Shown here in pieces: positions 6,604-62,797 of a stretch of DNA of 64,000 nucleotides (positions are counted from its first letter, which is position 1; the number at the start of each line of letters is the position of its first letter). Source of the DNA: an uncultured virus (IMG/VR IMGVR_UViG_3300027749_000050) (lineage: Duplodnaviria; Heunggongvirae; Uroviricota; Caudoviricetes). Where the stretch lies: the IMG/VR virus record IMGVR_UViG_3300027749_000050. One strand, 5' to 3'. The translations under genes and the position numbers were made by a program. Below the pieces are notes generated by a model. The model worked only from the letters and a program-made list of their open reading frames with translations. It did not search any database and was not told the origin of the DNA.

Positions 6604-9600
6604 TATCTAGGAGATTGTAATAGTTTTTCGTTTGACATTTTAAATAAAAACTTAACACCGTCACTTACTGTTTTTCTAAGAAAAACTCTATTTATATTGT
6701 GTCTAAATTTCTTATGTTGTATTGCTTCTTTACTGTAATTAACATAGGTAGAGTTGATAGGGTAGACATAACCTTTAGAAGATGTATTAAACATTGGTAT
6801 GTTTACACCTGACCCAATATCATCTCTATTATTTGTTATATCCCAGAACTGATTAAATCTATATTTATTTTCTACTTTAGAAAACTGAATATCTATAGAA
6901 TCAGAATTTACTTTAGGATATGCCAATATTGATAAAGGATCATTCTTAATTCTTACATTAAGATTAAGAAGACCAGATATTTGTTCAGAGTTATATATGA
7001 TAGCTTGATCAAAGTTTTCATTATACACATGAAACTTATCTCTACACTCATTATCATATTTGTAAGCTTCTAATATATATTCTATACTTCTCATTGTAGT
7101 TACTGTCTGCCCAGTGGCTGAAACAAACTCTACTTCCCAAGGATAGTTCACACCATAGAAATTACAATAAGAGTCACATCTAATATTATGTTTCCAAATA
7201 CTATCACCATTTATAGAAGCAAAATGAATTTTACCTGGTAACAAGAATGTAGGTATCCAGTCATGAAAACTAATCCATGTCTGTGCTTTAGGATCATATG
7301 ATATAGTGAAGCTAGCATCTTCAAAATAGTCTGTGTTATCTAAACTAATCTTTGCACCAAAATAATAAAACTGTCCGTCTTCATCATATGTTAAATCTGT
7401 CTTTAAAGGTTTATAATCTTTCTTACTGACATAAACAATTTCATTAGTATTATCATACACCATATGAATACCAATACCAACAACCGGATTATCAAATAAA
7501 GGATAGTTTGGATAAACTTTAAGAAGTTCAGATGGAAGATAACTAGCAAACCAATACCTAAGTCCATTAGAAGATATTTCTTTTAAACCTTCACCGGCAT
7601 AGTTAAATATTTTACCTTGGTTTTGACTAACATAAAATACACCATACTTAGTTCCTATAGCTGAATATTTACTTTGACAAGATCCATACTCATAAGACTC
7701 ATCTACATTTACTACAGATTGTAATTGAGATGCTCCACTAAATAAAGCACCATCTCCAATAGTAATCTTAGCACCAGTGCCATCAAGTCTAAGTTCTTCA
7801 ACCCCCATAAATTGTAAAGGTCCTTGGAACTTCATCATAAAAAAGGCACCTGTTTTATTTATAGGTTTTATAGAAGTAACATTAGTATTAAAATCTTTAT
7901 AGTTATTAGCTAAGAAAATTCTCCAACTATCTTTTTTAGATTCATCTTGTTGAGGGAGAGAATATATCACTCTGTTAGGACGATATGTATAACATGTTGC
8001 TGCTATCGTAGGATTATAATCTCTAGCTAGCATGTTGCCCCAACTTATATTAGAATTAAATAAGTGACTTATACTAAGAGAATAATCATACTTATAGTAG
8101 TTACCACTTTTTATAGCATCACTCCTAAACATAGTATTAATATCTGTAAATCCATATGGATCATAATGTCTATGAGCTATGTCATCTTCATAATCTCTAA
8201 ATGTTAAATTTACTTCTGACTCACAAAAAAAATCACGTACACCTGAATTAAATAAATAAAAATATCCTTGATTTAAATATAACCAACTACCTGATCTTAC
8301 ACTATCTAAACTTCTATGATTAGAAGGTCTATCATTAAATAAACCTATATACTTATAACTATCAACCCAATATCTAGGATAGGGTATAGTAGGGTATAAT
8401 GTATAATCAAATTCATATCCATCTGGTTCTTCGTATAACCATGTGTTAAAAAAGAACATAGAATTCTTTTCTGTAAATCTTCCTATATAAGTGTCACCTC
8501 CAAAAAATACAGGACTAGTAACCACTTCATCTAAAATAGGTTTAGATGGATAAATACATTCTGATATAGGTAATTGTTTAATAGATTCTAACTGACCATA
8601 TTGGCTAGGTATAGAAATCTTTATAGCACCATAATGAGAAGATATATTTGTACTTAAAGATTGAGAATATTTTGCACCTGTTGATCCTATTGTTATTCTA
8701 CTATCGTCTATGTTAATAGGATCATCAAAATCTTCACTTAATTTAATGCAAACAAATCTACTTCTATTATAATTATTAATTTGAAAGTTACCAGTAAATT
8801 GTTGTAAAGAAGATCCTACATAAATAGCATCTGTTATTTTTCTACGTCTATTTCCTTCTACACTTTGTGTAGATTGATTATATAATCCATGTGAATTATA
8901 TTGAGCAGCAAATTGTCTAAATGGTATTAATGCATATACAACAGATAGCACTTGTTCTTTTTCAATTTTAGCTCCAAAAAATAATTTATAAGCTCCTAAG
9001 AAAATACCATTAGCTGCTAGAGCTACTGCTGCAAAAGCAGTTGCTAAAGCTCCTTGAGTACCTTCTGCTACCACTTTATCAACACCAGCTGTTTTAGCAG
9101 GTAAATCTTTATTAGCAGAGACATCCACTTTAAATCCTCCTGTTATAGCTTCAGCAGCTTGAATAACTACAAGGGCAGAAACAAAAATATCTAAAGTGGT
9201 ATCAAAATTGTTTACTAATAATTTAAATTTAGGATGCATGTATGGTATCTCAAAAGTTCCTCTAGCTGTTCCATACATTTCTTGATATAACTTAACCTCA
9301 TTAACATTTAAATAAGGATTTGTAAATGCTACCTCAGGACTATGAAAAGAAAATGTATCTTGTCTATACCCACCCAACCCTGATGTTTTAGGACCATCTG
9401 TATTACTACCACTTGTATTGTTTTGTTCAGTGGCTGTTAAATACATATCAGTACTTAAATCATTATAAGGATAGTTTTGATAAAGTCCTGTTGCTTCTGG
9501 GTTTCCAGGAATAGGGTATGATCTCATATTATTAAAAAGACCCTTTGCTATTATAGACTTATTACCTTGTCTTGTTCCTCTTAGTATTTCATATCCAAGA

Positions 9601-55146: not shown

Positions 55147-55338
55147 ATGGCTATAAATTCATTAGTTATGTTACAAGTTTATGTAATTGTTTACTCTCAT
55201 GATAAAAACAGCATTGCAAATCCAATCTTCTTTAATTCAGAAAAAGAAGCAATTGATTGGAAGAAAGATAAGATTGCTAACGATGAGTGTGGTAATCCTA
55301 TCACTGCTTATGATGTAAAAAGATTAGAGAGCCTGTAA
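55147..55338 (+). CDS. Hypothetical early protein
   Basis: VYVIVY...F.SEKEA small phage protein pattern; start may be 55168. Confidence 0.55.
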   Translation: MAINSLVMLQVYVIVYSHDKNSIANPIFFNSEKEAIDWKKDKIANDECGNPITAYDVKRLESL

Positions 55339-55523
55339 TAGGGCTCTTCAGAGAGTAGATTGGGAATCTGATAATGTATATTAAAATCAGATGAACACCA
55401 AGTAAATAGTAACTACTCTTTTTTCTTTCAATATGTAATAGATAGCATTGCTTAGAAGATAAACCAGGACACATCATCCTGTAAATGTCTAAGTTCAAGT
55501 ACTGACAAGTGCTATTACATATT

Positions 55524-55653
55524 TGTTTAATGCACCATTTCAGCTTCCCAAGGGCTGACAGTTGTAGAAAATATTAGCACATAAGCTAATTGACTATAGA
55601 ATAGCCAGTGACAACTTTAAATAAGCTATTACATCTGAGTTGCAGAGGGGACA
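55524..55653 (+). ncRNA. Twister self-cleaving ribozyme (type P1) with large P5 insertion
   Basis: UGUU-UAA-UGCA-CC...UCAGC-UUCCCAAGG-GCUGA...UGCA-GAGGG-GACA reproduces twister P1/L1/P2/P4 and both pseudoknots. Confidence 0.75.
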
Positions 55654-55679
55654 TTTCACACACAAACAAAAACTTAATT

Positions 55680-56045
55680 ATGGCTACAGAAATTAAAATT
55701 CAGAACAGAATAGAGAACAATGTTGTCTATTCTAATTTAGTTTATCCTTTGGATCATGGATATTACTATGTTGCTCCATTGGACAACAAATGGGTTGAGG
55801 ATAGAATTCATTCATGGTTTGGTGTAGATAGGATTGCAAACAAGTATGCAGTGGAAATCATTGGTAACAGTGGTCATCCATTACTAATATGCAATCATGA
55901 TGGTGATCATTACCTAGTACAAAAAGGAAAAATTAAAGAAGAGAAATTTGTTCTTAATGGAGACATGGCTAATGAATTTAATGATTCATTTCCTTCTGAG
56001 TATGATTGTTGGAATGGTGATGAGACAGATAAAATTAATTATTAA
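55680..56045 (+). CDS. Hypothetical early protein
   Basis: Likely start ATG 55680 (MATEIK); the longer track start overlaps the ribozyme. Confidence 0.6.
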   Translation: MATEIKIQNRIENNVVYSNLVYPLDHGYYYVAPLDNKWVEDRIHSWFGVDRIANKYAVEIIGNSGHPLLICNHDGDHYLVQKGKIKEEKFVLNGDMANEFNDSFPSEYDCWNGDETDKINY

Positions 56046-56064
56046 TCCATTAAAATTAAATTAT

Positions 56065-56355
56065 ATGGAAAAAGTTTATTTAGTTTATTATGACAATGGA
56101 GAACGTTGGGAAGATCATCACGTATATGTAGATAAGATCTTTCTTTCTAAAGAATCTGCAGATGTATATGCAGAAGAAAAGAATGCTCCAATGCAAAAGT
56201 ATACACCTTCTGTTACAGAAGAAAGATACATTGCTGAAAACTGGAGTGAAACTAATGGTTGTACTTATTCTCAGTTTATAGAGAATGAACAGTATGATTG
56301 GAGTATGTATCGTGATGCAAAATATTATGTATCTGAATCAGATGTCCATCCATAA
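56065..56355 (+). CDS. Hypothetical early protein
   Basis: MEKVYLVYYDNGE.WED...IF.SKE.A pattern common in phages. Confidence 0.65.
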   Translation: MEKVYLVYYDNGERWEDHHVYVDKIFLSKESADVYAEEKNAPMQKYTPSVTEERYIAENWSETNGCTYSQFIENEQYDWSMYRDAKYYVSESDVHP

Positions 56356-62316: not shown

Positions 62317-62758
62317 GGGCCTGACCTGGATTTTGACAGAGTAAGGAAGGTAGTATCACATGCAAAGCCTAGTCAGTGGCTAAACAAACTGATTAACAAT
62401 AAAAGACAACGTAGAATTATCTACTTGGAGCTTTGATGACATGCTTGCATTCATTGGAGCTGATGAAGCTATTGCAGCCTAGTCAACCGGGGCAGCTGAT
62501 AGCCTTGCAACAGAACAGCCACATGTAAAGACAGAGGGTCTTCCTTTGACACTGATCATCCAAGACTATATGATGTAAAAAGAAAGTTAGTTTTCTAGTT
62601 CATAAACTAGATGGTGGAGCTGGTGGCTTTTAAACCACTGGTTAGTTCCCTTACGGTGCAAATAACGGGGGTTCATCCTCTTGATTGTTAGTACTAAGCA
62701 TGTAAGAATGGTATTATTAGAATTATTTTGGACCAGGGTTCGATTCCCTGCAGGTCCA
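62317..62758 (+). ncRNA. ssrA: tmRNA
   Basis: 5' GGGCCTGACCTGGATTTTGAC; 3' GACCAGGGTTCGATTCCCTGCAGGTCCA; G3-U70 alanine pair; internal tag ORF ending AIAA*. Confidence 0.92.
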
Positions 62759-62797
62759 CATTCTTTTAACAAAATTAAATAACCAAAAAATTAACTA

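Follow-up and report, generated by a model that had tools for sequence, protein, structure and literature searches.

Introduction

Twister ribozymes, a class known since 2014, have been found near phage genes. The class (Roth et al. 2014, as reviewed in PMC5408937, in excerpt) is characterised by the stems P1, P2 and P4, the optional stems P0, P3 and P5 and two pseudoknots, T1 and T2. In addition, the cut is followed by a conserved A, T2 involves a conserved GC of L2, and P4 is extended by an invariant G-C pair. According to the same excerpts, P1 can be deleted without loss of twister activity, and P5 is a peripheral and optional part of the architecture. Clustering of ribozyme classes has been described as a trait of bacterial ribozymes (PMC10085705, in excerpt), and it has been proposed that these RNAs cut multi-gene messages into pieces with different fates (PMC6765202, in excerpt).

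Here we analysed positions 55524-55653 on the plus strand of a 64-kb stretch of phage DNA (64,000 nucleotides, the window). We assign a probability of roughly 0.7 to the reading that this element belongs to a variant twister subfamily carried by phages, of type P1, lacking P3 and with a P5 arm, and that it is expected to cleave itself and would serve to separate cistrons. The elements of the family follow the same order as in twister type P1 (RF03160), namely P1, UAA, P2, L2, P4/L4, P5, P2', GAGGG and P1'. T1 likewise joins the CCC of L4 to a 3' GGG, supported by compensatory changes, the predicted cut site is followed by an A, P5 occupies the optional position, and a short P1 is tolerated in known twisters; the family also resembles the class in its occurrence in phages and next to other ribozyme classes. 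The family fits the twister class on P2, P4, T1, the junction and the optional P5, and misses on the length of L4 and on the closing pair of P4.

Results

The element lies between two small genes of a tailed phage

The window stems from a tailed phage with terminase, portal and major head protein genes on the minus strand. A run of small uncharacterised ORFs on the plus strand precedes ParB-like and replication-initiator genes, and a tmRNA gene was found at 62317-62761. Sequencing runs carrying DNA of this stretch were from freshwater and lake samples. When the letters were checked, all twister core elements were present at the positions first described, in non-coding RNA between the plus-strand ORFs 55147-55338 (63 aa) and 55680-56045 (121 aa, no PHROG family). 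The stop codon of the upstream ORF falls into the loop of a hairpin (AGAGCC-loop-GGCUCU, 55328-55347), which a scan for terminator-like structures reports on the minus strand. The downstream ATG at 55680 is located 31 nt after the last base of the ribozyme core and 151 nt after A55529, in line with the distance of about 150 nt given in the original prediction.

Comparison of contigs revealed that a 177-nt plus-strand stretch (55349-55525) is absent from a co-occurring variant in run X2, the DNA of which joins 55348 to 55526 with TCTT in between, so that hairpin, U-run and ribozyme stand directly together. No relatives of 55349-55525 were present among the fetched loci. A scan for sigma-70 promoters returned 6 sites versus 6.3 expected, the likely host type being outside the coverage of the scan. 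In an RNA-library run (X3), contigs matched 55209-55504 and 55692-55842 at 99% or more and left 55505-55691 uncovered, a gap which at the low depth of this library is uninformative on cleavage.

The element belongs to a large family found almost only in phages

Relatives were searched with a 17-mer spanning P4/L4, which placed no constraint on P5 or on the 5' and 3' cores. This search returned 45 viral contig loci, 36 of which contained the whole motif (34 complete and 2 cut by contig ends), while the other 9 were unrelated GC-rich coding DNA. Although unconstrained by the search, the 5' core, the 3' core and P5 were kept in these loci: the AA of the UAA junction was present in all 34 complete loci, and UAA together with GAGGG in 33 of them, the exception being a decayed copy (L041) whose 3' strand is altered by G-to-A changes in the 3' core. 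Three more pattern scans, each with different positions freed, gave 112 and 114 stretches in viral contigs and at least 120 in metagenome contigs; much of the core was fixed by these patterns, which makes its conservation partly circular. After filtering for pairing in P2, P4, P5 and T1, the family comprised at least 212 distinct full-length sequences.

A covariance model (R1) trained on 92 other members, with the window copy left out, matched 55520-55657 with 77.4 bits (E 2.2e-19). This was its sole real match in the 64 kb: no second copy was found with R1, and the next match (9.6 bits, E 2.4) is a hairpin inside an ORF. Given this E-value, and because 36 of the 45 loci of the 17-mer share the whole motif, the resemblance goes well beyond chance. 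Among prokaryotes (one genome for each of 185,579 species) only 4 matches were found, in two Sediminibacterium MAGs, one further MAG and one small Aquiluna-labelled contig, and the family is essentially phage-borne. A blastn search of 55300-56100 against 50,697 phage records gave no match. Paired copies, 150-520 nt apart, were observed in five loci (L022, L028, L077, L148 and L157).

Stems of the family are supported by covariation

Structure was assessed in an alignment of 92 of the 111 members other than the window copy, namely those with a P5 of 66 nt or less. In this alignment 92.5% of the cells were paired, compared to 78.1% in shuffles, and the covariation score of 0.433 (0.166 in shuffles) was reached by 0 of 500 shuffles. 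Sliding the partners against each other gave at most 49.6% paired cells, and G.U pairs occurred on the strand of the element only. The consensus fold was the minimum-energy fold in 74 of the 112 members and within 2 kcal/mol of it in 96. What the data show directly is that the element belongs to the family, that the stems and T1 exist, and that the copies lie between genes of the same strand.

P1 of the window copy pairs UGUU (55524-55527) with GACA (55650-55653), both strands being placed by sequence and by the R1 alignment; four pairs are possible (U-A, G-C, U-A and U.G), one of them a wobble. Across the 112 members the mean number of contiguous P1 pairs was 2.22, compared to 1.08 after shuffling of the partners, and none of 2000 shuffles attained the observed mean; 35 members had at least 4 bp and 28 had no pairs. 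Double changes were found at 4 of 4 P1 pairs, but only 67.9% of the cells were paired in the 92-sequence alignment. The UAA of J1-2 (55528-55530), which contains the predicted scissile bond, follows P1, and the base before the predicted cut is U in 203, A in 5 and C in 4 of the 212 sequences.

P2 consists of five pairs between UGCAC (55531-55535) and a 3' strand GU(U)GCA (55639-55644), in which one extra U (55640 or 55641) appears as an insertion in the R1 alignment; all five pairs are formed around this bulged U in the window copy. In the 92-sequence alignment 100% of the P2 cells were paired, with double changes at 2 of the 5 pairs. The third pair is C-G in 87, U-A in 23 and U.G in 2 of the 112 members, and the fifth pair is C-G in 97, U-A in 14 and U.G in 1. 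A junction consisting of a single A (55638; A in 112 of 112) between P5 and P2 sets the family apart from known twisters. The 3' end of the element reads UGCA-GAGGGG-ACA (55641-55653). Its GAGGG (55645-55649) represents the 3' strand of L1 and includes the 3' strand of T1 (G55647-49), an assignment based on T1 covariation and on the alignment of the relative L028 to the GAGGG of RF03160; we take G55645 to be the likely general-base guanine.

P4 (UCAGC/GCUGA, 55540-55558) showed double changes at all five pairs, each of which was formed in at least 108 of the 112 members (99.1% of cells paired in the 92-sequence alignment). It is separated from P2/T2 by the linker AUU (55537-55539), which in the family reads AUU in 64, ACAA in 22, AUAA in 17 and otherwise in 9 of the 112 members. 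The closing pair of P4 is variable (C-G 80, A-U 15, U-A 14 and U.G 3 of 112) and, together with an extra U, stands in place of the invariant G-C pair of known twisters (PMC5408937, in excerpt).

L4 forms T1, and one base of the usual T2 is used in P2

The 9-nt loop L4, UUCCCAAGG (55545-55553), is identical in 111 of the 112 members. Compared to the P4/L4 of the rice twister, with its 8-nt loop UCCCAAGC (PMC11662667, in excerpt), it is one U longer, as had been predicted. Its CCC (55547-55549) forms the 5' strand of T1 and pairs with G55647-G55649. Among 94 viral-contig sequences in which both strands were left free, we found CCC/GGG in 76, CCA/UGG in 12, CAC/GUG in 2, UCA/UGA in 2, CCU/AGG in 1 and a mismatch in 1. 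In 95 metagenome sequences, among the matches listed, CCC/GGG occurred 75 times, CCA/UGG 11 times, CAC/GUG 5 times and UCC/GGA and UCA/UGA once each; of the other two sequences, one has a mismatch and one is a probable chance match. Compensatory changes of five kinds overall were thus present in 17 of 94 viral and, among the matches listed, in 18 of 95 metagenome sequences, and T1, the pseudoknot that defines the twister class, is proven by covariation.

The situation is different for T2. It had been proposed that the usual short GC/GC pseudoknot is replaced by a compensatory CC (55535-55536) with GG. The letters CC are present as described; the pairing was not supported by covariation, as C55535 covaries with G55639 and the remaining bases are invariant. 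In the 212 sequences the pair C55535-G55639 is C-G in 169, U-A in 41 and U.G in 2, with no mismatches. The U-A state occurs in several core backgrounds, each only 1-2 letters away from a C-G counterpart, suggesting repeated independent switches. C55535 and G55639 form the fifth pair of P2, and C55535 is therefore not a demonstrated pseudoknot partner. Relative to known twisters, this fifth covarying pair makes use of the base that corresponds to the G of the L2 'GC'. By analogy, the sole remaining candidate for a T2 partner of an L4 G is C55536, which is C in 112 of 112 members, in 94 of 94 sequences in which the position was free and in 94 of 95 metagenome sequences (the exception, L388, has the look of a chance match). 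C55536 and the two G's of L4 are invariant even where free and give no covariation. T2 of the family would accordingly comprise at most one secure pair, between C55536 and one G, plus an unproven one, which again differs from known twisters. A published search descriptor allows 'NC' at the T2 site of L2 (PMC11662667, in excerpt), which places the CC within the known twister range.

These data would be compatible with a re-wired twister in which one T2 pair has been swapped for C55535-G55639, the freed G of L4 may pair with the extra U of L4, the one-pair T2 keeps the stack height above P2, and the conserved base of P5 acts as a docking platform for exchangeable inserts. We put this arrangement forward tentatively and consider it somewhat less probable than not. 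If true, it would mean that the active site tolerates a tie between L4 and L2 that is absent from any solved structure.

The family is missed by Rfam, but a relative aligns to twister type P1

The original prediction had named a search with the Rfam twister-P1 model as a check and had counted a missing match against itself; 55524-55653 gave no match. At the gathering score, Rfam 15 reported only the tmRNA in the 64 kb and no match to a twister model (types P1, P3 and P5) at this site, and a search of 361 nt around the element at E<=10 returned three chance-level matches, none of them to a ribozyme. Twister models likewise gave no match in 20 loci of the family at E<=1 and none in 40 more at the gathering score. 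The relative with the shortest P5 (L028), in contrast to the window copy, which scores no match, aligned to all 68 positions of RF03160 with 20.2 bits (E 0.025 in 121 nt), the best score among the relatives and well below the cut-off of 67.2 bits. RF03160 was the only ribozyme family matched by this relative at E<=10, and UAA, P2, GAGGG and P1 were found at the expected places. The Rfam miss is due to a narrow Rfam model and not to the absence of the fold.

Given that L028 aligns over its full length to RF03160 with its elements placed alike, and with all core letters in place in the window copy, we regard the element as of the twister type. The same alignment puts the UAA exactly where the original prediction had placed it, and the predicted cleavage is accordingly assigned, from sequence comparison, to the bond between U55528 and A55529. 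Twister-sister ribozymes, which are also found near phage genes, bear a vague likeness to the family in sequence and stem layout. They cleave on the opposite loop strand and show no evidence of pseudoknots (PMC5408937, in excerpt), whereas the family has a covarying T1; together with the lack of a twister-sister match at E<=10 for both the window copy and L028, this speaks against a twister-sister identity. No published description of a phage twister subfamily with these features was found in the literature searched, and the alignments of Roth et al. 2014 or the tables of PMC11662667 (in excerpt) may include members.

The window copy carries a bulge and a mismatch

Two features of the window copy, the extra U in P2 and a U55562.U55634 mismatch in P5, had not been mentioned in the earlier description. 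The P5 arm extends over 79 nt (55559-55637, by R1 alignment), and its base is formed by CAGUUGUAG (55559-55567) and a strand of the CUACAUCUG type (55629-55637). In the family, pairs 1-8 of P5 are formed in at least 99 of the 112 members, with double changes at 9 of 9 modelled pairs. The sequence at the base of P5 shows unusual conservation, reading CAGUUGUAAU / AUUACAACUG in most members, and hypervariable inserts are attached to it, a further difference to known twisters. As had been described, the window copy contains a multi-stem insertion at P5: AUUAGC (55573-78) and GCUAAU (55585-90) form an interior hairpin and are enclosed by AGUUGU (55560-65) and ACAACU (55611-16). The letters of this description are correct; the assignment of AGUUGU/ACAACU as P5 is not, since the register of the family pairs 55559-55567 with 55629-55637, and ACAACU (55611-16) acts as a competing strand. 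The two registers are nearly equal in energy, with -21.7 kcal/mol for that of the family and -22.0 kcal/mol for AGUUGU/ACAACU.

These defects raise the possibility that the family is a real twister-type ribozyme of which the window copy is a crippled or dead, decaying relic. The extra U was found in 1 of the 112 members, the window copy alone, although the parsing pattern allowed it, and a T-T at the fourth pair of P5 in 3 of 112. Two RNA-library contigs (X20 and X21) contain a close relative of the P5 insert and the 3' core without the extra U, and decayed members such as L041 do exist. Moreover, a crystal-structure paper, as reviewed in PMC5408937 (in excerpt), cautions that the active site might be perturbed if P2 is lengthened or shortened. 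The minimum-energy fold of the window copy differs from the twister fold: the consensus fold lies 3.7 kcal/mol above the minimum, among the worst of the 112 members, 96 of which are at 2 kcal/mol or less, and the alternative P5 register is equal in energy. The energy comparison leaves out the pseudoknots, which weakens this argument for a relic. The thermodynamic fold of the region, no better than that of shuffles (z -0.68; 44 of 200 at least as stable), counts against the main reading but is uninformative, given that the calculation covers nested pairs only. A DNA contig from a second sample (X2, 55499-55649) has no differing letters, the extra U included, which shows that the U is not an assembly slip and also speaks against decay. 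In addition, the invariant core bases, T1 and P4 are all intact, the R1 score is 77.4 bits, and in large-scale assays natural twisters mostly tolerate bulges and mismatches in P1, P2 and P4, although not in pseudoknots or catalytic bases (PMC11662667, in excerpt). We therefore hold a dead relic to be unlikely, while taking it seriously, and conclude that the bulged U, the U.U mismatch and the competing P5 strand may make the window copy cut less well than typical members.

The P5 insert is not conserved

An exact 10-nt direct repeat of the 3' strand of P5, GCUAUUACAU (55511-20), is located just upstream of the ribozyme. The original prediction had suggested that the insertion might regulate the ribozyme, and a switch can be envisaged in which this repeat and the two alternative P5 partners, ACAACU (55611-16) and the family-register strand (55629-37), toggle the core between an active and an inactive state. 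The near-equal energies of the two P5 registers and the exactness and position of the repeat would favour such a switch. The P5 insert of the window copy, however, has no relatives among the fetched loci, as is the case for the upstream 177 nt, and nothing in them is conserved; the P5 arms of the family range from 10 to 182 nt (212 sequences) and carry unrelated inserts; the co-occurring variant lacks the upstream 177 nt; and P5 is peripheral and optional in twisters (PMC5408937, in excerpt). Regulation by the insertion is not supported by the comparison with relatives, and we consider a switchable ribozyme improbable.

Copies are intergenic and oriented with their neighbouring genes

No ORF starting with ATG and of at least 60 aa overlapped 97 of the 112 copies. 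In the subset of 74 copies flanked by 1 kb or more on each side, the closest ORF was on the same strand in 67 cases downstream and in 64 cases upstream. The 86 downstream proteins form 63 clusters, which indicates that the element does not accompany one particular gene. Terminator-like hairpins followed by a U-run ended at most 12 nt from the cut site in 15 of 108 copies, compared to 2 of 108 control windows. Of 60 loci scanned, 3 contain another self-cleaving class on the same strand at most 1 kb upstream, a Hatchet ribozyme in L049 and Pistol ribozymes in L089 and L109, located 440-930 nt upstream of the family members. Pistol and Hatchet, which occur in phages and in bacterial intergenic regions, share their niche with the family, while their folds and consensus sequences are unrelated; presumably, all of them have a common role in cutting multi-gene messages. 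The same-strand intergenic placement, the terminator hairpins and the company of Pistol and Hatchet fit the message-cutting proposal for bacterial ribozymes (PMC6765202, in excerpt).

A tRNA or tmRNA predicted by ARAGORN was located within 2.6 kb of only 10 of the 112 copies, the nearest at 220 nt, which rules out a general linkage to tRNA genes. In one locus (L071) an Rfam tRNA lies 7 nt after the ribozyme copy.

Least probable of the alternatives, by a little, is a twister-like fold without cleavage that would function as a structure in the 5' UTR, for instance by binding a protein or controlling translation. In its favour, cleavage is a prediction for all members, T2 and the P4 closing pair differ from the canonical twister, the conserved P5 base could be a binding site and a start codon lies within 60 nt downstream in 29 of 74 copies. 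Against it, the family retains the UAA junction, GAGGG, L4 and T1 of catalytic twisters, its same-strand neighbours include Pistol and Hatchet ribozymes, the genes that follow the copies are unrelated to each other, and tandem copies only 3 nt apart in one MAG (L278) fit a cutting element better.

Discussion

From the conserved architecture and placement of the family we infer cleavage, its site and its effect on messages. In the mechanism that we favour, the fold of the RNA would comprise a short P1, P2 and P4 with five pairs each, the loop UUCCCAAGG on P4 and a P5 arm that can take inserts of any size. Pairing of the CCC of the loop with the GGG of the 3' GAGGG (T1) would position the loop at the UAA junction, an arrangement shared with known twisters, and self-cleavage between U55528 and A55529 would take place in the course of transcription or shortly thereafter. 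The upstream RNA would end in a 2',3'-cyclic phosphate, this piece having a hairpin at its end, and at the 5' end of the downstream message, which would carry a 5'-OH, the folded ribozyme would stand 31 nt before the ATG at 55680. The likely job of such a ribozyme would be to separate neighbouring cistrons of a same-strand array into pieces that differ in stability or translation, and at the locus described here it probably cuts a phage message a short distance upstream of a small gene.

The occurrence of a twister ribozyme in a phage is unsurprising. What is new is a subfamily of hundreds of sequences, found almost only in phages and missed by Rfam 15, that departs from the class at positions treated as conserved, with five pairs in P2, 9 nt in L4, a modified T2 and a P4 closed by a pair other than the invariant G-C. 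The subfamily represents a natural test of which tertiary contacts are needed by the twister active site, and the window copy provides a natural bulge-and-mismatch variant for comparing activity with clean copies. A family-specific model would recover such elements in lake and other viromes. Moreover, the intergenic same-strand copies offer a tractable system for the long-open role of self-cleaving ribozymes in bacteria and phages.

Sequence variants of the predicted ribozyme region in a coexisting strain and RNA libraries

Among the sequencing runs with contigs matching the window, the DNA run X2 contained a contig in which position 55348 was fused to position 55526 via TCTT, so that 177 nt (55349–55525) were missing. 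This fusion indicates a co-occurring strain that lacks the 177 nt and in which hairpin, U-run and predicted twister ribozyme (window 55524–55653, + strand) are contiguous; the long form, containing 55349–55525, was present in a second X2 contig. Contigs from two lake metatranscriptome studies (RNA libraries X20 and X21) matched window positions 55546–55640, from L4 to P5, with 4 differences, and had different flanks. On their 3' side these contigs were without the extra U of the window copy, and on their 5' side, of which 30 letters were viewed, no recognisable P2 5' strand was found and L4 was one U shorter. The X20/X21 sequence may be a relative that has been rearranged or broken.

Other RNA elements in the window and near family copies

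A hairpin sharing the UUCCCAAGG loop of the ribozyme family is located at window 7130–7146 (+), within an ORF coding for a 1513-aa virion protein. As a copy of the phage-borne twister-type family it was rejected as a chance resemblance, given its score of 9.6 bits (E = 2.4) with the family covariance model and the absence of the other core parts. The window also contains a tmRNA gene (62317–62761, +; Rfam, 78.2 bits) with a tag peptide of 29 residues (ARAGORN), and a permuted tmRNA was likewise matched in the family locus L108. In locus L071, Rfam placed a tRNA (2413–2494, −; 47 bits) that begins 7 nt past the 3' end of the family copy; ARAGORN made no call at this position. Ribozymes of other classes were found 440–930 nt upstream of family copies and on the same strand as these, namely a Hatchet ribozyme (L049, 2243–2401, −; 81.3 bits) and two Pistol ribozymes (L089, 3465–3525, −, and L109, 1993–2061, +; 56.2 and 42.8 bits, respectively).

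Recurring inserts, repeats and tandem copies

Despite differing P2, P4 and linkers, several family members, including those of L054, L082, L085, L108, L117 and L158, had a P5 insert of ~41 nt in common, the alignment rows of which share ...GAGATAAGGAT.AAAT.ACTACCTACCT... Further P5 inserts recurred in other sets of loci (e.g. L055/L065/L159 and L050/L111/L139), and the P5 inserts look like exchangeable modules. Directly 3' of the ribozyme, a conserved TTGTTGCACATGGAACAC-like stretch was present in several loci (L010, L012, L015, L018 and L037). The copy in L041, with G-to-A changes in its 3' core (TAAGTGCAAAGAG replacing TGAGTGCAGAGGG), is probably a decayed family member.

In the window, the 10-nt sequence GCTATTACAT occurs as an exact direct repeat (55511–55520 and 55626–55635, +), the first copy lying 8 nt 5' of the UAA (55528–55530) and the second forming the 3' strand of P5. 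The repeat may be a leftover of recombination between tandem copies, or else may act as a competing strand. Tandem arrangements were found elsewhere in the family: in L278, from a Sediminibacterium MAG, ribozyme copies at 301–410 and 414–516 are spaced by only 3 nt, and L055 (around 2480–2500) holds a copy whose 5' flank consists of a second copy's 3' core. Cleavage at both of two such tandem copies would free a unit-length ribozyme RNA.
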